From: Escherichia coli 042 | GTDB taxonomy: Bacteria; Pseudomonadota; Gammaproteobacteria; Enterobacterales; Enterobacteriaceae | Direction: 5' to 3' (one strand) | DNA: 64,000 bases | Assembly (NCBI RefSeq): GCF_000027125.1 | Contig: NC_017626.1 | Part shown: in pieces, positions 5,866 to 49,750 of the stretch | Layout: each line of letters begins with the position of its first letter | Numbering within the stretch: the stretch's first letter is position 1 | The notes under the pieces: generated by a model | Seen by the model: only the letters and a program-made list of their open reading frames with translations | Databases searched by the model: none | What the model was told of the DNA's origin: nothing | Program-made: the position numbers and the translations under genes

Positions 5866-6798
5866 TTACTTATTCTGACGCTGTGATGACATCAACGACG
5901 TCAGAAGTCGGTCTTTTTCCTGCCACAGTGAGTTCAGCCATTGCTGAAAATGGCGCTTAAAGCTTTTGTCATTGATGTAGTCGCCATGTAACTCATCGGC
6001 AATAGGCTGTAAATCCACATGTACGACAATTCGCGTCAGTTTACCGCTTAACATATCGAAGAACGGCTGACGGTTATTGTCCGGATAACATAGCGTAACA
6101 TTAAGCAGTTTATCGAATTGTTTACCCAGTACATTTAGCGCCATCGCAATGCCTGCCGCCTTTGGTGGCAACAAGTTTTGAAAAGTGGAGTGCGTTTGCT
6201 GATGTTTTTCTTGCGTGAAACGGGAGCCTTCAACGAAATTAACAATGGTGGTGGGATGCAGGCGAAACTTTTCACAAGAACGCCGAGTAGTTTCAACATC
6301 TTTACCACGTCTCTCCGGATGACGTAATAAATAAGCGCGGGAATAACGCTTCATAAACGGCATATCCAGCGCCCAGCATGCCAGGCCAAGAAAAGGCACC
6401 CAGGCCAGCTGCTGCTTGAGGAAATATTTATTCATCGGAATGTGCTTACGAAACAGCACGCACAGTACGACAATATCTGCCCAACTACGGTGGTTACAAA
6501 TAAGCAGATACCAGTTTTTCTTACTTAACCCTTCCAGCCCGTGAACTTCCCATTGCAGGTGTGGGTTCAAATGCAGTAATACCGCCAGACCTTCACACCA
6601 GCAATACATCATAAAATCACAAAAACGCGAAACCTTTCGCCAAATGACTGGCACAGGAAGCAATAGTTTTACAATCCCGGCAATGATGATCGGGACGGAG
6701 CAAAAAATAGTGACCAAAATGGTCAATACGATACTCAGCAAAAGGGTTATCGCAGCGAGTATTCTCGTCATAATGAATTTATTCAAAAAGTTAGCCAT
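5866..6798 (-). CDS. yihG: Membrane acyltransferase YihG (PlsC-like)
   Basis: 310-aa product from [16 protein letters not shown] acyltransferase motif; N-terminal TM segments. Confidence 0.85.
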
Positions 6799-7161
6799 AG
6801 ACAGTGCGCTAAAGAAGCGCAAGGCGCAGATTTTAGCAGAAAACGACCCAAATAACGGATGATCCTTAAGGAGAAAAATAATTCATATCTATCCACATTA
6901 GAAAAAATCCCATTATCTCAATTATTAGGGATGGTCTTATTTTTAACTTCATGAAAAACAAAGACAAACATCATGCTGTAAAAAGCATGATAATAAATTA
7001 AAAGCGATGTAAATAATTTATGCACAAAGTTATCCACATGACGATTTGCGAGCGATCCAGAAGATCTACAAAAGATTTTCACGAAAAGCGGTGAAAAACT
7101 CATGTTTTCATCCTGTCTGTGGCATCCTTTACCCATAATCTGATAAACAGGCACGGACATT

Positions 7162-9948
7162 ATGGTTCAGATCCCCCAAAATCCACTTATCCTTGTAGAT
7201 GGTTCATCTTATCTTTATCGCGCATATCACGCGTTTCCCCCGCTGACTAACAGCGCAGGCGAGCCGACCGGTGCGATGTATGGTGTCCTCAACATGCTGC
7301 GCAGTCTGATCATGCAATATAAACCGACGCATGCAGCGGTGGTCTTTGACGCCAAGGGAAAAACCTTTCGTGATGAACTGTTTGAACATTACAAATCACA
7401 TCGCCCGCCAATGCCGGACGATCTGCGTGCACAAATCGAACCCTTGCACGCGATGGTTAAAGCGATGGGACTGCCGCTGCTGGCGGTTTCTGGCGTAGAA
7501 GCGGACGACGTTATCGGTACTCTGGCGCGGGAAGCCGAAAAAGCCGGGCGTCCGGTGCTGATCAGCACTGGCGATAAAGATATGGCGCAGCTGGTGACGC
7601 CAAATATTACGCTTATCAATACCATGACGAATACCATCCTCGGACCGGAAGAGGTGGTGAATAAGTACGGCGTGCCGCCAGAACTGATCATCGACTTCCT
7701 GGCGCTGATGGGTGACTCCTCTGATAACATCCCTGGCGTACCGGGCGTCGGTGAAAAAACCGCGCAGGCATTGCTGCAAGGTCTTGGCGGGCTGGATACG
7801 CTGTATGCCGAGCCAGAAAAAATTGCTGGGTTGAGCTTCCGTGGCGCGAAAACAATGGCAGCGAAGCTCGAGCAAAACAAAGAAGTTGCTTATCTCTCAT
7901 ACCAGCTGGCGACGATTAAAACCGACGTTGAACTGGAGCTGACCTGTGAACAACTGGAAGTGCAGCAACCGGCGGCGGAAGAGTTGTTGGGGCTGTTCAA
8001 AAAGTATGAGTTCAAACGCTGGACTGCTGATGTCGAAGCGGGCAAATGGTTACAGGCTAAAGGGGCGAAACCCGCAGCCAGGCCGCAGGAAACCAGTGTT
8101 GCAGACGAAGCGCCAGAAGTGACGGCAACGGTGATTTCTTATGACAACTACGTCACCATCCTTGATGAAGAAACACTGAAAGCGTGGATTGCGAAGCTGG
8201 AAAAAGCGCCGGTATTTGCATTTGATACCGAAACCGACAGCCTCGATAACATCTCTGCCAACCTGGTCGGGCTTTCTTTTGCTATCGAGCCAAGCGTAGC
8301 GGCATATATTCCGGTTGCTCATGATTATCTTGATGCGCCCGATCAAATCTCTCGCGAGCGTGCACTCGAGTTGCTAAAACCGCTGCTGGAAGATGAAAAG
8401 GCGCTGAAGGTCGGGCAAAACCTGAAATACGATCGCGGTATTCTGGCGAATTACGGCATTGAGCTGCGTGGGATTGCGTTTGATACCATGCTGGAGTCCT
8501 ACATTCTCAATAGCGTTGCCGGGCGTCACGATATGGACAGCCTCGCGGAACGTTGGTTGAAGCACAAAACCATCACTTTTGAAGAGATTGCGGGTAAAGG
8601 CAAAAATCAACTGACCTTTAACCAGATTGCCCTCGAAGAGGCCGGACGTTACGCCGCCGAAGATGCGGATGTCACCTTGCAGTTGCATCTGAAAATGTGG
8701 CCGGATCTGCAAAAACACAAAGGGCCGTTGAACGTCTTCGAGAATATCGAAATGCCGCTGGTGCCGGTGCTTTCACGCATTGAACGTAACGGTGTGAAGA
8801 TCGATCCGAAAGTGCTGCACAATCATTCTGAAGAGCTCACTCTTCGTCTGGCTGAGCTGGAAAAGAAAGCGCATGAAATTGCAGGTGAGGAGTTTAACCT
8901 TTCCTCCACCAAGCAGTTGCAAACCATTCTGTTTGAAAAACAGGGAATTAAACCGCTGAAGAAAACGCCGGGTGGCGCGCCGTCAACGTCGGAAGAGGTA
9001 CTGGAAGAACTGGCGCTGGACTATCCGTTGCCAAAAGTGATTCTGGAGTATCGTGGTCTGGCGAAGCTGAAATCGACCTACACCGACAAGCTGCCGCTGA
9101 TGATCAACCCGAAAACCGGGCGTGTACATACCTCTTATCACCAGGCAGTAACTGCAACGGGACGTTTATCGTCAACCGATCCTAACCTGCAAAACATTCC
9201 GGTGCGTAACGAAGAAGGTCGTCGTATCCGCCAGGCGTTTATTGGGCCAGAGGATTATGTGATTGTCTCGGCGGACTACTCGCAGATTGAACTGCGCATT
9301 ATGGCGCATCTCTCGCGTGACAAAGGCTTGCTGACCGCATTCGCGGAAGGAAAAGATATCCACCGGGCTACGGCGGCAGAAGTGTTTGGTTTGCCACTGG
9401 AAACCGTCACCAGCGAGCAACGCCGTAGCGCGAAAGCGATCAACTTTGGTCTGATTTATGGCATGAGTGCTTTCGGTCTGGCGCGGCAATTGAACATTCC
9501 ACGTAAAGAAGCGCAGAAGTACATGGACCTTTACTTCGAACGCTACCCTGGCGTGCTGGAGTATATGGAACGCACCCGTGCTCAGGCGAAAGAGCAGGGC
9601 TACGTTGAAACACTGGACGGACGCCGTCTGTATCTGCCGGATATCAAATCCAGCAATGGTGCTCGTCGTGCAGCGGCTGAACGTGCAGCCATTAACGCGC
9701 CAATGCAGGGAACCGCCGCCGACATTATCAAACGGGCGATGATTGCCGTTGATGCGTGGCTACAGGCTGAGCAACCGCGTGTGCGTATGATCATGCAGGT
9801 ACACGATGAACTGGTATTTGAAGTTCATAAAGATGATGTCGATGCCGTCGCGAAGCAGATTCATCAACTGATGGAAAACTGTACCCGTCTGGATGTGCCG
9901 TTGCTGGTGGAAGTGGGGAGTGGCGAAAACTGGGATCAGGCGCACTAA
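7162..9948 (+). CDS. polA: DNA polymerase I
   Basis: 928-aa ORF; 5'-3' exonuclease, 3'-5' exonuclease and polymerase ([23 protein letters not shown]) motifs. Confidence 0.97.
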
Positions 9949-10095
9949 GATTCGCCTGAACATGCCCTTTTTTCGTAAGTAAGCAACATAAGCTGTCACG
10001 TTTTGTGATGGCTATTAGAAATTCCTATGCAACAACTGAAAAAAAATTACAAAAAGTGCTTTCTGAACTGAACAAAAAAGAGTAAAGTTAGTCGC

Positions 10096-10204
10096 GTAGG
10101 GTACAGAGGTAAGATGTTCTATCTTTCAGACCTTTTACTTCACGTAATCGGATTTGGCTGAATATTTTAGCCGCCCCAGTCAGTAATGACTGGGGCGTTT
10201 TTTA
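10096..10204 (+). ncRNA. spf: Spot 42 sRNA
   Basis: Recognised GTAGGGTACAGAGGTAAGATGTTCTATCTTTCAGACC... ending in hairpin CCCCAGTCAGTAATGACTGGGG plus T-run. Confidence 0.85.
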
Positions 10205-10227
10205 TTGGGCGAAAGAAAAGCTCCGTA

Positions 10228-10312
10228 ATGCCTGATGCGCCCTGTTTATCAGGCCAACGGTAGAAGTGTAATCTATTGAATTTACGGACCGGATACGCCA
10301 CATCCGGCACAA
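10228..10312. repeat. REP/BIME palindromic elements
   Basis: GCCTGATGCGCC...TATCAGGCC and CCGGATACGCCACATCCGGCA units. Confidence 0.7.
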
Positions 10313-10329
10313 GCATTAAGGCAAGAAAA

Positions 10330-10962
10330 TTATTCGCCGTCCTGCGTTTCTTCTACAGGCTGCATCTCGCTAAACCAGGTATCCAGTTTCTGCCGCAGCT
10401 TGTCCACGCCTTGTTTCTTCAGTGAAGAGAACGTTTCAACCTGCACATCACCGTTAAACGCCAGCACCGCTTCACGCACCATATTCAATTGCGCTTTACG
10501 TGCGCCGCTTGCCAGTTTGTCCGCTTTGGTCAGCAGCACCAGCACGGCGATATTGCTGTCTACCGCCCACTCAATCATCTGCTGATCCAAATCTTTCAGC
10601 GGATGGCGAATATCCATTAGCACCACCAGACCTTGCAGGCTCTGACGTTTTTCGAGGTATTCGCCGAGCGCGCGCTGCCATTTGCGCTTCATCTCTTCCG
10701 GGACTTCCGCGTAGCCATAGCCGGGCAAGTCAACCAGACGCTTGCCGTCAGCCACTTCAAACAGGTTGATAAGCTGGGTGCGCCCTGGGGTTTTTGAGGT
10801 CCGCGCCAGGCTTTTCTGGTTAGTCAGCGTGTTCAGCGCGCTGGATTTACCTGCGTTGGAACGGCCTGCAAAAGCCACTTCAATTCCGGTATCGGAAGGT
10901 AAGTGGCGAATATCAGGCGCACTCATCACAAAATGCGTCTGTTGATAATTCAAATTAGTCAA
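10330..10962 (-). CDS. engB: Ribosome-biogenesis GTPase EngB (YihA)
   Basis: 210-aa ORF; G1 motif [10 protein letters not shown]3 DLPGYG, G4 TKADK. Confidence 0.92.
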
Positions 10963-11232
10963 AGCGGTCGTCTCCGTCAGTCAAAGCTTTGCGGCGATTA
11001 TACCTGAACCATAATAAAAGGCGGATTTTTCGGCGTGAGCGTTGTAAGTAAAAGCCATACGCTTTGTGAGACATTGCCGATAGTCTTTATGCGAAATAGC
11101 AGAGAAAATTCTGCGATGCATGTCAAATAAGCTATATAAATCAGTTAATTGCTTTTATATAAAACTCTGAAAATGTGCAAATACTGATGGCGGTTGATTG
11201 TTTGTTTAAAGCAAAGGCGTAAAGTAGCACCC

Positions 11233-11477
11233 ATAGAGCGAGGACGCTAACAGGAACAATGACTCAGGATGAGGGTCAGGAGCGCCAGGAGGCGAAGACA
11301 GAGGATTGTCAGGAAGACAAACGTCCGGAGACGTAATTAAACGGAAATGGAATCAACACGGATTGTTCCGGCTAATGGAAAAACAGGGTGTGTTGGCGGC
11401 CTGCAAGGATTGTAAGACCCGTTAAGGGTTATGAGTCAGGAAAAAAGGCGACAGAGTAATCTGTCGCCTTTTTTCTT
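11233..11477 (+). ncRNA. csrC: CsrC sRNA (CsrA-sequestering)
   Basis: About 245 nt dense in GGA/AGGA motifs (AGGACGC, CAGGATGA, CAGGAGCG, CAGGAAGA...), ending in hairpin GGCGACAGAGTAATCTGTCGCC plus T-run. Confidence 0.8.
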
Positions 11478-11543
11478 TGCTTGCTTTCTGTTAGATTCCG
11501 CCGCAAATCTATACTGAATAAAACGGCTAAAAGACGAACCATT

Positions 11544-12053
11544 ATGAAACCATCATCTTCAAACTCACGCAGCAAAGGTCATGCAAAAGCGCGTCGAAAA
11601 ACACGCGAGGAGCTGGATCAGGAAGCTCGTGACCGTAAGCGTCAGAAAAAACGTCGTGGTCATGCGCCGGGCAGCCGCGCAGCGGGCGGTAACACCACGT
11701 CAGGCAGCAAAGGCCAGAACGCACCGAAAGATCCACGTATTGGCAGTAAAACCCCTATTCCATTGAGCGTGACTGAAAAAGTCACCAAACAGCACAAACC
11801 GAAGAGTGAGAAACCTATGCTTTCACCGCAGGCGGAGTTGGAATTACTGGAAACGGATGAGCGTCTGGATGCGCTGCTGGAACGTCTGGAAGCAGGCGAA
11901 ACCCTGAGTGCCGAAGAGCAATCCTGGGTGGATGCCAAACTGGATCGTATTGATGAGTTGATGCAGAAACTCGGCCTCTCTTATGACGATGACGAAGAAG
12001 AGGAAGAAGACGAGAAGCAAGAAGACATGATGCGTCTGCTGCGGGGCAACTAA
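11544..12053 (+). CDS. yihI: Der GTPase-activating protein YihI
   Basis: 169-aa product starting [19 protein letters not shown]; basic N-terminus, acidic C-terminus. Confidence 0.85.
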
Positions 12054-12241
12054 CGGATTGCCGCCGTGGGCCTTCCCGTTCTGCTGATAACCCTTCCGGT
12101 TATATGTTATCTGGTGTGGTTATTCGTTAAACTACAGCGGTTGTCGCGGCGACAAAAGTGGCTGCGCAACCGGCTGATGACCCGAAACGGGCATCCGCCG
12201 GTACGCCGTAGCCGCCAGAGACGCCATCGGAAGGAGTGAGC

Positions 12242-13615
12242 ATGTCTGTACAGCAAATCGACTGGGATCTGGCCCTGATCCAGAAATATAACTATTCCGG
12301 GCCACGATACACCTCGTACCCGACCGCGCTGGAGTTTTCAGAAGACTTCGGCGAACAGGCGTTTTTACAAGCCGTGGCGCGCTATCCTGAGCGTCCATTA
12401 TCTCTCTACGTACATATTCCGTTCTGCCATAAGCTTTGTTACTTCTGCGGTTGCAATAAGATTGTTACTCGCCAGCAGCACAAGGCCGATCAGTATCTGG
12501 ACGCGCTGGAGCAAGAAATCGTCCATCGTGCACCGCTGTTCGCCGGGCGTCACGTCAGCCAATTGCACTGGGGCGGTGGTACGCCGACGTATCTGAACAA
12601 AGCGCAAATCAGCCGTCTGATGAAGCTGCTGCGCGAAAACTTCCAGTTCAATGCCGATGCGGAGATTTCGATCGAAGTCGATCCGCGTGAAATCGAACTG
12701 GATGTACTCGATCATTTACGCGCCGAGGGCTTTAATCGCCTGAGCATGGGCGTGCAGGACTTCAACAAAGAAGTGCAACGTCTGGTTAACCGCGAGCAGG
12801 ATGAAGAGTTCATCTTTGCACTGCTTAACCATGCGCGTGAGATTGGTTTTACCTCCACCAACATCGACCTGATTTACGGCCTGCCGAAACAGACGCCGGA
12901 GAGTTTCGCCTTTACCCTGAAACGCGTGGCGGAGCTGAACCCCGATCGTCTGAGTGTCTTCAACTACGCGCATCTGCCGACCATTTTTGCTGCTCAGCGC
13001 AAAATCAAAGATGCTGACTTGCCGAGTCCGCAGCAAAAACTCGATATCCTGCAGGAAACCATCGCCTTCCTGACGCAATCGGGCTATCAGTTTATCGGTA
13101 TGGATCACTTTGCTCGCCCGGATGACGAGCTGGCGGTGGCCCAGCGTGAAGGCGTGCTGCATCGTAACTTCCAGGGCTACACCACTCAGGGCGATACCGA
13201 TCTGCTGGGGATGGGCGTTTCCGCCATCAGCATGATTGGCGACTGCTACGCGCAGAACCAGAAAGAGTTGAAGCAGTACTATCAGCAAGTGGATGAACAA
13301 GGCAATGCGCTGTGGCGTGGTATTGCGCTAACGCGTGATGACTGTATTCGCCGCGATGTGATTAAGTCGCTCATCTGCAACTTCCGTCTGGATTTCGCCC
13401 CCATTGAGCAACAGTGGGATTTGCACTTCCCTGATTACTTTGCCGAAGATCTCAAGCTGCTCGCCCCGTTAGCAAAAGATGGGCTGGTGGATGTGGATGA
13501 GAAGGGGATTCAGGTGACGGCGAAAGGTCGCCTGCTTATCCGCAACATTTGCATGTGCTTTGATACCTATCTGCGCCAGAAAGCGCGGATGCAGCAGTTC
13601 TCTCGGGTGATTTAA
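12242..13615 (+). CDS. hemN: Oxygen-independent coproporphyrinogen III oxidase (radical SAM)
   Basis: 457-aa product; radical-SAM CxxxCxxC (CHKLCYFCGC). Confidence 0.93.
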   Translation: MSVQQIDWDLALIQKYNYSGPRYTSYPTALEFSEDFGEQAFLQAVARYPERPLSLYVHIPFCHKLCYFCGCNKIVTRQQHKADQYLDALEQEIVHRAPLFAGRHVSQLHWGGGTPTYLNKAQISRLMKLLRENFQFNADAEISIEVDPREIELDVLDHLRAEGFNRLSMGVQDFNKEVQRLVNREQDEEFIFALLNHAREIGFTSTNIDLIYGLPKQTPESFAFTLKRVAELNPDRLSVFNYAHLPTIFAAQRKIKDADLPSPQQKLDILQETIAFLTQSGYQFIGMDHFARPDDELAVAQREGVLHRNFQGYTTQGDTDLLGMGVSAISMIGDCYAQNQKELKQYYQQVDEQGNALWRGIALTRDDCIRRDVIKSLICNFRLDFAPIEQQWDLHFPDYFAEDLKLLAPLAKDGLVDVDEKGIQVTAKGRLLIRNICMCFDTYLRQKARMQQFSRVI

Positions 13616-18249: not shown

Positions 18250-18305
18250 TGTTGCACCAATATAGTGCTTCAATGGAAACATTAAGCACCATATTGGTGC
18301 AATGA
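18250..18305 (-). promoter_or_regulatory. NtrC enhancer binding sites upstream of glnA
   Basis: Two TGCACCA-N-GGTGCA-like palindromes (TGCACCAATATAGTGC, GCACCATATTGGTGCA). Confidence 0.7.
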
Positions 18306-18452
18306 CCTTTGGATAACCCTTTTTATGCTCCGTGAAAGCGATCACAAAGGGACTCTGCAATACTTGTTTGCGGAGGATGTTTGTGATCCTGTTTTGTAGT
18401 GCGATTAATCCGTGTACAATAACGCGCTATTTCTAATGCCTGAGGCAAAGTT

Positions 18453-44761: not shown

Positions 44762-45660
44762 TTGCGCTCCTCGTCTTTCTCTTCGTGCAGATTATTCTCT
44801 TCCTCATCCGCACGGTTCGGACCGACACCCACGTAGTGGAAGATACTGGCTGCGAAGGTAGCCGCAAAGCCAACGGCTGCGAGCGGTTTCCAGATGCCTT
44901 TCCAGAATTTCACGGTTTCGCTGATTTCCGGGTTCTCCGGCAAGCCATGATACAGATTTGGCTTGTCAGCATGGTGCAGCACGTACATGACGTGTGTACC
45001 ACCAACGCCTGCCGGATCGTACAGACCCGCATTGTCGTAACCGCGGGTTTTCAGCTCAGCAACGCGCTCGCTCGCCAGCGTTTTCATCGACTCTTTCGTA
45101 CCGAAGTGAATCGCGCCCGTTGGGCAGGTCTTCACGCAGGCTGGTTCTTGCCCAACCACCACGCGGTCAACGCACAGCGTACATTTGTAGACGCGGTTGT
45201 CTTCCGGGTTGAGGCGCGGAATGTCGAACGGACAGCCCGCAATGCAATAACCGCAGCCAATGCACTGCTCGGACTGGAAGTCGACGATACCGTTGGCATA
45301 CTGAATAATTGCACCTTCCGCCGGGCACGCTTTCAGGCAGCCTGGATCGGAACAGTGCATACAGCCGTCTTTGCGGATCAGCCATTCCAGTTTGTCGTTC
45401 TGCTCCACTTCCGAGAAGCGCATTACCGTCCACGATTTGGCGCTTAAATCATTGGGGTTGTCGTACACCCCAATGTTATTGCCGACGGTATCGCGAATGT
45501 CGTTCCACTCTGAACACGCCACCTGACAGGCTTTACAGCCGATACAGGTGGTGACGTCGATGAGTTTCGCCACTTCTTCCTGGAAGTCCCGCGCCTGAGG
45601 CGCGGGGGTCAGACCGTTAGTCGCGGAACGACGAATGATATCTTGAGATTGATAAGCCAT
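44758..45660 (-). CDS. fdoH: Formate dehydrogenase-O iron-sulfur subunit
   Basis: 300-aa ORF with multiple CxxCxxCxxxCP ferredoxin motifs. Confidence 0.93.
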
Positions 45661-45672
45661 ATGTCGTCTCCG

Positions 45673-48600
45673 TTACACCTTTTCCACATTCACAAGGAAG
45701 GACTTAAACTCCGGCGTCTGCGTGTTCGCATCACCAACGAAAGGCGTTAACGTATTGGCAATAAAGCCTTTTTTAGCTACGCCTTCATAGCCCCAGTGAA
45801 TCGGAATACCGATGGTATCGATATCTTTGCCGTTCGCTTTCAGCGTGCGAATACGTTTGGTCACCACCGCTTTGGCTTTGATATAGCCACGGTTGGAGGA
45901 GACTTTCACGGTATCGCCCTGGGCAATGCCAAGTTTATTCGCCAGCGACTCCCCGATTTCCACAAACTGCTCTGGTTGCAAAATCGCGTTCAACAGCGCG
46001 TGTTTGGTCCAGTAGTGGAAGTGCTCGGTCAGACGATAGGTGGTTCCGACATACGGGAACTTATCGGCTTTACCCAACGCTTCGGCGTCGTCTTTAAAGA
46101 TACGCGCAGCCGGGTTCGAGATAACGTTTGGATGCAGCGGGTTAGTTCCCAGCGGCGTTTCAAACGGCTCGTAGTGTTCCGGGAACGGACCTTCCGCCAT
46201 CTTATCAAGGGCAAACAGACGTCCCATGCCTTCCTGCTGCATGATAAACGGCCCTACGCCGCTGCCCGGAGGCGCTGCGCTGTAGTCCGGAATATCCCAG
46301 CCGGTCCACTTAGTGCCGTCCCATTTCAGCAACTGACGCTTCGGATCCCACGGGTTACCCTGCGGATCTGCGGAGGCGCGGTTATACAGGATGCGGCGAT
46401 TAAGCGGCCATGCCCATGCCCAGCCCAGCGTGTTACCGAGGCCAGACGGATCGGCGTTATCACGGCGTGCCATCTGGTTACCTTCTGGCGTCCAGCTACC
46501 GGCGAAAATCCAGCAGCCACAGGAGGTGGTACCGTCATCGCGCAGTTGGGCGAACGAGCTAAGTTGTTGGCCTTTCTTGACGATAACCGCACCGGTTGCC
46601 GGATCGGTAATATCGGCCAGCGCCTTACCGTTGCTCTCCATCGCTACTTCTTCCGACTTCGGCTCATGCGGGATAGCGTAGTTCCAGGTCATGTTCAGCA
46701 CCTGGTCCGGGTTCGCGCCACCCTGTTCGGCATACATCTTGCGCAAGCGCAGGAAGATACCGGAGAGGATCTCGCCATCAGTCAGCGCAATCCCCGGGGC
46801 GTCCGCACCTTTCCAGTGCCACTGCAACCAGCGACCGGAGTTAACGATTGAACCGTTCTCTTCCGCGAAGCAGGTCGATGGCAGACGGAACACTTCGGTC
46901 TGGATCTTCGACGAGTCAACTTCGTTCAGCTCACCGTGGTTCTGCCAGAAGTTAGAGGTTTCAGTGTTCAGCGGGTCGATGGTGACGAGGAACTTCAGTT
47001 TCGACAGACAACCGATCACTTTGTTTTTGTTCGGGAATGAGGCAACAGGGTTAAAGCCCTGGCAGATATAGCCATTGACCTTGCCTTCTTTCATCATCTC
47101 GAAGTATTGCAGGACGTCGTAGCCTTTATCCCACTTCGGCAACCAGTCAAAGCCCCAGCTATTTTCCGCCGTCGCTTTATCACCAAAGAAGGCCTTCATC
47201 ATAGAGACGAAGAATTTCGGGTAGTTGCCCCAGTAGTTTACCTGGCCTTCCAGCAGCGGTTTTGGCGTGTTGGCGGTAAGGTAGGTTTGCAGATCGGTCT
47301 GCTTCTCGCTCGGCAGCGTCATGTAACCCGGCAGGCTCTGCGACAGCAGCCCCAGGTCCGTCAGCCCCTGAATATTGGAGTGACCGCGCAGGGCGTTAAC
47401 GCCGCCGCCTGCCATCCCCATATTGCCGAGCAGCAGCTGGATCATCGCCATCGTACGAATGTTTTGCGCACCAACAGAGTGTTGCGTCCAGCCGAGGGCA
47501 TACAGGAACGAGGCAGTTTTATCGTGAGCACTGGTTTCGGCGATGTATTCGCAGACTTTCAGGAACGCGTCTTTTGGCGTACCACAGATGTTTTCAACCA
47601 CATCTGGCGTGTAGCGGGAAACGTGCTGTTTCAGCAAGTTCCACACGCAGCGCGGATGTTGCAGCGTGGTATCGCGTTTGGCGAAGCCGTTTTCGTCCAG
47701 TTCGTAAGTCCAGGAGGATTTATCGTACTTGCGTTTTTCCGCGTCATAGCCGGTGAACAGGCCATCTTCAAAGCCGTAATCCTCACGCACGATCAGGCTG
47801 GCGTTGGTATAGGCTTCGGTGTATTCGCGGTTGAATTTTTCATTGTTCAGCAGGTACAGCAATACGCCTGACAGGAAAGCAATGTCAGTACCGGAACGAA
47901 TAGGGGCATAGTAGTCAGCCACCGCCGCCGTACGCGTAAAGCGAGGATCGATCACAATCAGCTTCGCGCCATTGTGAATTTTGGCTTCCATCGCCCAGCG
48001 GAATCCGACCGGGTGAGCTTCAGCGGCGTTACCGCCCATCACCACGACGAGGTTGGCGTTCTTGATGTCGACCCAGTGGTTGGTCATCGCACCGCGACCA
48101 AATGTTGGAGCAAGACTTGCTACCGTTGGTCCGTGTCAGACACGCGCCTGGTTGTCGACCGCGAGCATACCCAGCGCGCGGGAGAATTTTTGCGTTAAAT
48201 AGCCGGTTTCGTTACTCGACGCGGAAGCACACAGCATCCCGGTGGAGAGCCAGCGGTTAACGGTCACGCCTTCGGCGTTTTGCGCAATGTAGTTAGCATC
48301 GCGGTCTTCTTTCATCAGTTTGGCGATGCGATCAAACGCCTCTTCCCAACTGATTTGCTGCCATTTATCAGAACCTGGCGCACGGTATTCCGGAAACTTC
48401 AGACGGCTTTCGGAGTGGATGAAATCCACCAGGCCAGCGCCTTTCGGACAAAGTGCACCGCGGTTGACCGGGTGATCCGGATCGCCTTCGATATGGAAGA
48501 TAGATGCTTTGGCGTTTTTTGCTCCGTCACCGAGGCTGTACATCAACAGCCCACAGCCTACGGAACAATAGGTGCAGGTATTACGGGTTTCGCGGGTGCG

Positions 48601-48723
48601 CAGCAGTTTATACTGCCGGGTTTCCGCGAGCGCTACGCTGGGGGCAAAACCCAGTGCCGCTGCCGTGGTGCCTGCCATACCGCCAGCGCAGATCTTAAAG
48701 AACTGCCTTCTGCTGACCTGCAT
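45673..48723 (-). CDS. fdoG: Formate dehydrogenase-O catalytic subunit (selenoprotein; in-frame UGA = Sec)
   Basis: Two same-frame ORFs (45673-48087 and 48136-48723) separated only by an in-frame TGA at 48136-48138; Tat signal MQVSRRQFFK; molybdopterin oxidoreductase motifs. Confidence 0.93.
48085..48135 (-). promoter_or_regulatory. SECIS-like stem-loop immediately 3' of the fdoG UGA
   Basis: Self-complementary mRNA segment CACGGACCAACGGUAGCAAGUCUUGCUCCAACAUUUGGUCGCGGUG directly after the UGA. Confidence 0.6.
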
Positions 48724-48916
48724 GGATTGCTCCTTGTTTCGACATTGTCACGTCCCATTTACATTCGCTTGCTGCGTGTGCAGGGAGTGGGAGTTATTTT
48801 TCTTTGCGGAAGGGGCCGCAAAGGTCCAGAATTGGCTCAATTTCCCTCCATCCAGGAAGGGTTTGTAACAGAATACCATAATGTTGGTGTGTGTGTTCTT
48901 ATCTGGTTAAGAGAAA

Positions 48917-49750
48917 GTGAAAAAAACACAGCAAAAAGAAATCGAAAATGTGACAAATGTCACAGGTGTTCGTCAAGTTGAGTTATGGCGGCGTGATGAT
49001 TTACAACACCCACGGTTAGATGAGGTGGCGGAAGAGGTTCCCGTTGCGCTGGTCTACAACGGCATTTCGCATGTAGTGATGATGGCGTCACCCAAAGACC
49101 TTGAGTACTTTGCGCTCGGTTTTTCGCTTTCCGAGGGGATTATCGAAAGTCCACGCGATATCTTCGGTATGGATGTCGTTCCTTCCTGTAATGGTCTGGA
49201 AGTGCAAATTGAGCTTTCCAGCCGCCGCTTTATGGGGTTGAAGGAGCGTCGCCGGGCACTGGCGGGACGTACGGGATGTGGCGTGTGCGGCGTGGAGCAA
49301 CTTAATGACATCGGAAAACCGGTGCAGCCGCTACCGTTCACCCAGACGTTTGATCTCAACAAACTGGATGATGCATTACGTCATCTCAATGATTTCCAGC
49401 CAGTGGGGCAACTGACCGGTTGTACTCACGCCGCCGCCTGGATGTTGCCATCTGGCGAACTGGTCGGCGGGCATGAAGACGTGGGTCGCCATGTGGCGCT
49501 GGACAAACTGTTAGGCCGCCGGTCACAAGAAGGGGAAAGCTGGCAGCAAGGTGCGGTACTGGTTTCCAGTCGTGCCAGTTATGAAATGGTGCAAAAGTCG
49601 GCGATGTGCGGCGTAGAGATTTTGTTTGCGGTGTCTGCCGCGACCACGCTTGCTGTAGAAGTGGCTGAACGCTGTAATTTGACGCTGGTGGGCTTTTGTA
49701 AACCGGGTCGGGCAACGGTTTATACCCATCCGCAGCGTTTGAGCAATTAA
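48917..49750 (+). CDS. fdhD: Formate dehydrogenase accessory sulfurtransferase FdhD
   Basis: 277-aa [25 protein letters not shown]... Confidence 0.93.

Follow-up and report, generated by a model that had tools for sequence, protein, structure and literature searches.

The fdo locus and its interrupted reading frame

The window analysed here, a 64-kb stretch of DNA from Escherichia coli 042, contains a block of four minus-strand genes for the subunits of formate dehydrogenase-O (FDH-O) and an accessory protein, with the gene of a second accessory protein lying divergently upstream. The features of this locus, with the matches that identify them, are as follows.

43200–44129, minus strand: fdhE, formate dehydrogenase accessory protein (NF002925, 604.5 bits)
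44126–44761, minus strand: fdoI, FDH-O cytochrome b556 subunit (NF007924, 453.3 bits, cutoff 341)
44758–45660, minus strand: fdoH, FDH-O beta, iron-sulfur subunit (TIGR01582, 478.7 bits; matching the RefSeq locus annotation)
45673–48723, minus strand: fdoG coding sequence, FDH-O catalytic (alpha) subunit (1016 codons plus stop; TIGR01553 matched by both halves)
48136–48138, minus strand: in-frame UGA, codon 196 of fdoG, almost certainly read as selenocysteine (skipped profile position 195; FdnG residue 196 in 1KQF)
48917–49750, plus strand: fdhD, accessory sulfurtransferase, divergent from fdoG (TIGR00129, 340 bits; annotation)

Translated in one frame, the minus strand from 45673 to 48723 comprises 1017 codons including the terminator, and specifies a 1016-residue product. 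There is a normal terminator at the end, and the lone internal stop is the TGA at 48138–48136, codon 196; the frame is open from 48135 on, directly 3′ of this triplet. The first-pass annotation had described two minus-strand ORFs in one frame, split only by the TGA at 48136–48138, and had placed the latter at about residue 196 of a combined 1016-residue product. The translation bears out the first statement, and the second is exact. In the mechanical ORF list, the two minus-strand frames are given as 48136–48723 (195 aa) and 45673–48087 (804 aa). The 804 residues start at the first ATG to follow the TGA, a codon that lies 16 codons downstream and within a conserved domain; the portion of the fdoG product after the TGA amounts to 820 residues. 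The minus-strand text here (from the segment 47950–48250) reads GCG CGT GTC TGA CAC GGA CCA ACG GTA GCA AGT CTT GCT CCA ACA TTT GGT CGC GGT GCG ATG. Its translation runs QARV, stop, HGPTVA, so that a selenocysteine codon at this point opens a U-H-G-P motif, an instance of the UHxP motif given for TIGR01553 selenoproteins (PMC13188914, Table 1). A twin-arginine motif, SRRQFFK, is visible near the N-terminus of FdoG.

Comparison with protein families and structures shows what lies on either side of the TGA. The N-terminal 195 residues match positions 1–194 of the formate dehydrogenase alpha model TIGR01553 from NCBIfam with 271.4 bits, and the part after the TGA matches positions 196–1009 with 1278 bits, against a cutoff of 814.2 for full-length membership. 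A single model position, 195, is left between the two halves for the residue encoded by the TGA. A sequence search of the PDB aligned the halves to residues 1–195 and 197–1014 of chain A of 1KQF, and likewise to 1KQG, both being E. coli FdnG, from formate dehydrogenase-N (FDH-N). FdnG scores 1508.6 bits with the C-terminal part and 369.7 bits with the N-terminal part, and no other solved protein comes closer; that search brought up no PDB entry for FdoG. Residue 196 of FdnG falls where the TGA leaves a gap. Between the FDH-O protein and FdnG, about 23% of residues are different. The alignment called for by the first-pass annotation thus reveals the flanking frames to be a single FdoG-type protein, continuous on both TIGR01553 and 1KQF with one residue missing at the TGA. 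FdoG is, moreover, without a single amino acid difference over 1016 positions from RefSeq WP_011310337.1 of E. coli GN25, which is annotated as a single CDS at the fdo locus of that strain; the two coding sequences differ at 21 nucleotides.

The paralogue to be distinguished from fdoG is fdnG. The gene order fdoG-fdoH-fdoI-fdhE with fdhD divergent upstream, shared with RefSeq loci of the same synteny, is that of FDH-O rather than FDH-N, and true fdnG of strain K-12 adjoins yddG and narU. On the FdoI model NF007924 the gamma subunit scores above the cutoff, whereas its score on the FdnI model NF007558, 243.6 bits, lies under the cutoff of 339. Since the profiles, the fdo synteny, the FdoI model, the identity to the GN25 protein and the distance from FdnG all agree, we conclude that the gene is fdoG, encoding the FDH-O catalytic subunit, as the first-pass annotation had named it. 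Upstream of fdoG, a candidate match to the FdoG-1 5′ UTR thermometer was rejected, as its 32 bits fall short of the gathering score, 50; its good alignment consists mostly of the Shine–Dalgarno sequence and the first codons.

The TGA might nevertheless be taken at face value, as a genuine stop that has left either a pseudogene or two genes for proteins of 195 and about 804 residues. This is how the ORF list presents it, and generic gene callers yield exactly these two products: in the public collection, at least 1000 contigs carry the exact 195-aa fragment as a separate protein, and at least 1000 the exact 804-aa one, some of the N-terminal fragments under the misnomer 'sulfate ABC transporter substrate-binding protein'. 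The earlier remark that gene callers split fdoG is correct for this reason, and RefSeq/PGAP joins the parts, annotating fdoG as a single CDS between fdoH and fdhD. The two halves, however, are contiguous on one profile and in one crystal structure, with a gap of one residue at the catalytic selenocysteine, and the first ATG available to a separate downstream gene would begin the protein inside a conserved domain. The locus is present in 5425 of 5426 complete E. coli genomes (megablast), and in 5425 of the 5426 the TGA is kept together with its context, as it is at more than 100 loci across the Proteobacteria. It is also followed by a selenocysteine insertion sequence (see below). For the FDH-O of E. 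coli, full-length FdoG of 110 kDa labelled with selenium is reported to have been detected. A genuine stop is therefore an extremely improbable reading of this site, and we treat the TGA in what follows as a recoded codon of one gene.

The hairpin following the UGA

Searching the window with Rfam models at their gathering thresholds gave a sole SECIS match, which covers the UGA and the segment 3′ of it on the minus strand. Within this match, the following parts can be delineated; numbering in the hairpin takes the U of the UGA as 1, and the counts refer to the homologues described below.

48083–48141, minus strand: selenocysteine insertion sequence, full SECIS_3 match, 59 nt including the UGA (Rfam)
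48126–48135, minus strand: lower stem, 5′ arm (SECIS_3 match and MFE fold)
48107–48124, minus strand: upper stem-loop, the putative SelB-binding minimal hairpin, GG-U(bulge)-AGCAA-(GUC)-UUGCU-CC, 11 nt past the UGA
48122, minus strand: bulged U, U17 (unpaired in the Rfam consensus and the MFE fold; invariant, 65/65)
48115–48116, minus strand: apical-loop G23 (48116) and U24 (48115) (invariant, 65/65)
48093–48101, minus strand: lower stem, 3′ arm (SECIS_3 match, homologue pairing and MFE fold)

The match to SECIS_3 (RF01989) spans model positions 1–59 of 59, and its 84.3 bits exceed the gathering score of 63 (E = 1.8e-19). The UGA falls at model positions 4–6, which places the element immediately 3′ of the in-frame UGA at codon 196 of the 1016-codon frame. 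Written from the UGA, the element is UGA-CACGGACCAAC-GG-U17-AGCAA-G23U24C-UUGCU-CC, in which CACGGACCAAC is 11 nt long. The minimal hairpin bound by SelB has been described as an upper stem-loop 11 nt past the UGA with a bulged U17 and an apical G23/U24, the role of U17 being contact with SelB (PMC8659212). The fdoG element conforms to these rules in its spacing, its U17 and its G23/U24. More generally, bacterial SECIS elements have a loop of 3–9 nt, an upper stem of 4–16 bp, a G in loop positions 1–2 and 16–37 nt between the UGA and the loop (PMC13188914). The corresponding values in fdoG all lie within these limits, with a 3-nt loop, GUC, in which G is first, a 7-bp upper stem with one bulge and 19 nt from the UGA to the loop. 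A self-complementary segment suited to a bacterial SECIS, as had been noticed at first reading, is thus present here, with the model score, the spacing and the key bases in agreement.

The first-pass annotation had called for comparison with the fdnG and fdhF elements. The element of K-12 fdnG, which itself belongs to SECIS_3 (RF01989), is 100% identical to that of fdoG over the 59 nt, and over 71 nt in all; the UGA is again codon 196 and the structure is the same. The two differ in their setting, the fdnG element being situated in fdnGHI and the fdoG element in the paralogue at the fdoGHI-fdhE locus. In the nitrate-inducible formate dehydrogenase (fdn), UGA reportedly requires an mRNA stem-loop to be decoded as selenocysteine (Berg, Baron and Stewart, 1991). 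The fdhF element, the reference bacterial SECIS (RF01988, SECIS_2), shares with fdoG a hairpin immediately after the UGA, the 11-nt spacing, and the distances of U17 and G23/U24, and the first 8 nt past the UGA are alike (CACGG.CC). Its upper stem-loop is 17 nt with the loop GGUC, compared with 18 nt and the loop GUC (or AGUCU) in fdoG, and its lower stem and internal loop are unlike those of fdoG. The K-12 fdhF element scores 87.1 bits on SECIS_2 and 35.8 bits on SECIS_3. Membership of SECIS_2 was rejected for the fdoG element, which reaches 28.1 bits on that model where the gathering score is 70; the architecture is shared, but the element therefore belongs to the fdnG-type family, SECIS_3, and not to the fdhF type.

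The stability of the hairpin was assessed by comparing folding energies with those of shuffled sequences. The MFE fold of 48093–48138 (46 nt) is the bulged hairpin, at −12.7 kcal/mol and a z-score of −1.37, and a 57-nt segment folds at −17.4 kcal/mol with a z-score of −1.06. Between 21 and 36 of 200 shuffles folded as well as the fdoG segments, and the stability of the hairpin in the 57-nt and 46-nt folds is accordingly not significantly better than that of shuffled sequence (z −1.06 to −1.37). The upper stem-loop alone reaches −6.0 kcal/mol and a z-score of −2.61. The validated fdhF SECIS gives a z-score of −1.06 as well, so the energy z-score has no power in this instance, and we reject it as evidence against the hairpin. 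As for the stable hairpin called for at first reading, a bulged hairpin does fold at the right spacing; its energy is not significantly better than that of shuffles, and stability is on its own a weak test. An outer helix around the UGA in the MFE fold (columns 1–3 and 6–7 with 50–56) was discarded, as 309 of 500 shuffles reach its covariation score and half of the cells are unpaired at its two variable pairs.

Compensatory change and synonymous freeze

To follow the element beyond E. coli, we searched a single genome of each species for the degenerate pattern GTNTGACAYGGNCCNACNGTNGC and retrieved 120 loci in the Proteobacteria and beyond. One of these, in Streptomyces (L052), has no formate dehydrogenase context downstream and was excluded as a chance match. 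The 120 loci reduce to 65 distinct 59-nt segments from Gamma-, Beta- and Alphaproteobacteria and others. The pattern fixes most of columns 1–23, leaving the 5′ side free only at third codon positions and the 3′ half wholly free.

Across the 65 distinct segments, the upper helix is paired in 99.3% of cells. Two of its pairs vary. Columns 24 and 30 form AU in 45 segments, CG in 18 and GC in 2, and columns 21 and 33 form GC in 51, AU in 8 and GU in 6, with zero unpaired cells at either pair (n = 65). Double changes at these two pairs account for 28 cells, and all four columns are third codon positions. The changes are compensatory, the covariation score of 0.191 being reached by none of 500 shuffles and lying above the slid controls (0.038–0.084). 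When the partner is slid by 1–3 columns, pairing falls from 92% to 26–50%. U17, G23 and U24 are invariant in 65/65. The last of these is a third codon position, in Ser AGU or Gly GGU, and no other synonymous codon is ever used.

The lower stem is paired at 86% across the homologues, more weakly than the upper, and appears in two alternative registers according to lineage. The Rfam register leaves A12·G44 and A8·C48 of the E. coli sequence unpaired, whereas shifting by one position lets A12 pair with U45. Among the homologues, the bases in columns 12 and 45 are correlated (C/C in 35, A/U in 16). The Rfam register suits sequences of the GGC...GGC type, while those of the E. coli type, GGA...GGU, pair better one position over. 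We have therefore not adopted the Rfam register as the one for the E. coli sequence, and both are retained as lineage-specific alternatives.

These observations bear on whether the complementarity is simply a by-product of the conserved peptide HGPTVASLAPTFGRG, devoid of RNA function, with the UGA decoded by some other route. The peptide is highly conserved, and the folding energy is, as described above, not significantly better than that of shuffles, as such an account would have it. Constraint at the level of the protein, however, cannot give rise to the covariation between synonymous third positions seen at pairs 24–30 and 21–33, to a third-position U24 unchanged in 65 distinct sequences, or to a synonymous freeze limited to this segment (see below). 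The account fails for these reasons, and we accord it next to no probability. The compensatory changes and the frozen synonymous sites show that selection acts on the RNA structure itself.

The synonymous freeze can be seen when fdoG is set beside K-12 fdnG, with which it has one long stretch in common.

48071–48141, minus strand: 71-nt run identical to K-12 fdnG (codons 195–217 and the first two bases of codon 218)

This run, which begins three bases 5′ of the UGA, is the longest identical stretch between two genes that are 74.8% identical in nucleotides and 77% in amino acids over their whole length. Among the informative codons of the 71-nt region, 18 of 19 are the same as in fdnG, compared with 57.6% gene-wide. 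Similarly, when 31 distinct enterobacterial segments, fdoG-type and fdnG-type together, are compared, conserved residues keep the same codon in a fraction of 0.97–0.99 at codons 195–217 and of 0.55 in the flanks. What little variation the frozen segment shows is confined to the internal loop and the lower stem.

The 71-nt identity might be maintained mainly by gene conversion from one paralogue to the other, and not so much by purifying selection acting separately on the two RNAs. Several enterobacterial genomes have the same sequence in both paralogues, and the identical run continues past the hairpin for some 18 nt on its 3′ side, reaching codon 217, though this extension is based on just four informative codons. 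But the same sequence is found in 31 of 31 distinct enterobacterial segments with constant boundaries and with flanks that are only about 55% same-codon, and selection is a more parsimonious explanation than conversion recurring over the identical short tract in every lineage. Compensatory substitutions, the signature of selection, are furthermore seen outside the Enterobacterales. On balance, we consider gene conversion an unlikely main cause, and favour purifying selection on each RNA.

The freeze common to fdoG and fdnG, about 69 nt in codons 195–217, itself runs some 18 nt past the 3′ end of the hairpin, an extension that rests on four informative codons. It is improbable, to a slightly greater degree than the foregoing, that this marks either an extra functional segment, for example one setting the unwinding by the ribosome of SelB-bound mRNA, or recurrent short-tract gene conversion. 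Gene conversion or chance may account for the freeze past the hairpin.

Proposed decoding of codon 196

Taken together, the TGA at 48136–48138 and the hairpin that follows it are almost certainly the selenocysteine recoding site (Sec196) of fdoG, the gene of the aerobic formate dehydrogenase-O. This feature is not new: it is known both as Rfam SECIS_3 and as Sec196 of fdoG, and is ordinary textbook biology. The selenopolypeptides of E. coli number exactly three, FdnG, FdoG and FdhF (PMC4009273). Of 5433 E. coli records, 5432 have the 59-nt element at 99% identity or more.

The identity to the fdnG element, together with established knowledge, points to SelB binding and selenocysteine insertion at the fdoG UGA. 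With a ribosome at UGA196, the mRNA just downstream would fold as the bulged hairpin. The C-terminal domain of SelB, which would carry Sec-tRNA(Sec) and GTP, is expected to bind the upper stem-loop, and the complex tethered in this manner would compete with release factor 2 for the A site and supply selenocysteine there. The product would be a single polypeptide of 1016 residues, in which Sec196, on the same grounds, probably ligates the molybdenum of the bis-MGD cofactor. The genes selA, selB, selC and selD are absent from the 64-kb window, as are tRNA genes. We take selA, selB, selC and selD to be present elsewhere in the source genome, as an assumption from E. coli biology.

The fdoG site illustrates that a genuine SECIS can be missed by folding z-scores and yet be detected by covariance models, covariation and frozen synonymous sites. 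For annotation, its value is that fdoG should be joined across the TGA as one 1016-residue product with Sec196, thousands of the split fragments being still public.

Conserved sequence beyond the SECIS hairpin

The stretch that is identical in fdoG and its paralogue fdnG, and in which synonymous sites are frozen across Enterobacterales, continues for approximately 18–20 nt past the SECIS hairpin on its 3′ side, reaching codon 217; support for this extension comes from four informative codons only.

48071–48092, minus strand: fdoG/fdnG-identical extension past the hairpin

No structure that would account for the freeze was found in this segment.

The region upstream of fdoG and other RNA genes

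An Rfam search of the window returned a sub-threshold match to the FdoG-1 5′ UTR thermometer (RF02778), which scored 32 bits (E = 5e-5) against a gathering score of 50. The good alignment lies mostly over the Shine–Dalgarno sequence and the first fdoG codons, and the upstream helices are poorly aligned.

48694–48892, minus strand: RF02778 match

No tRNA genes were found by ARAGORN in the 64-kb window. The other RNA genes identified with Rfam are as follows.

1–999: 3′ end of 23S rRNA, and 5S rRNA
10086–10204: Spot 42
11233–11486: CsrC
18264–18371: ES222
42954–42996: ES036 (CssrF), directly downstream of fdhE

Gene names at the fdo locus

At the fdo locus, RefSeq/PGAP gives the alpha subunit the name 'fdnG, formate dehydrogenase-N subunit alpha', a naming artefact that arises because one alpha-subunit model (TIGR01553) spans both paralogues. 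The adjacent fdoH and fdoI are correctly named. The splitting of fdoG at the UGA has led to a misannotation: some of the 195-aa N-terminal fragments that are called as separate proteins in Cronobacter and Hafnia records are named 'sulfate ABC transporter substrate-binding protein'.

45673–48723, minus strand: fdo alpha-subunit gene (6001–9051 and 9517–12567 in the matching E. coli loci L001 and L124, respectively)
48139–48723, minus strand: segment whose homologues include the mis-named N-terminal fragments P0003 and P0004

Relation to other E. coli genomes

Among 5,426 complete E. coli genomes, the closest to the 24 kb spanning 36000–60000 shows 98.3% identity and none reaches 99%; for fdoG alone the best value is 99.3%. 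The source may belong to an Escherichia/Shigella lineage absent from this set of genomes. The gene layout of this region matches that of strains without the frv operon, in which a carbohydrate porin gene lies between yiiG and rhaM in its place. Upstream of the fdo operon in the matching E. coli loci, the interval from fabY to yiiE contains a truncated hypothetical gene as well as a transposase.

L124 3673–5487 (position corresponding to approximately 39700–41500 of the window): truncated hypothetical gene and transposase
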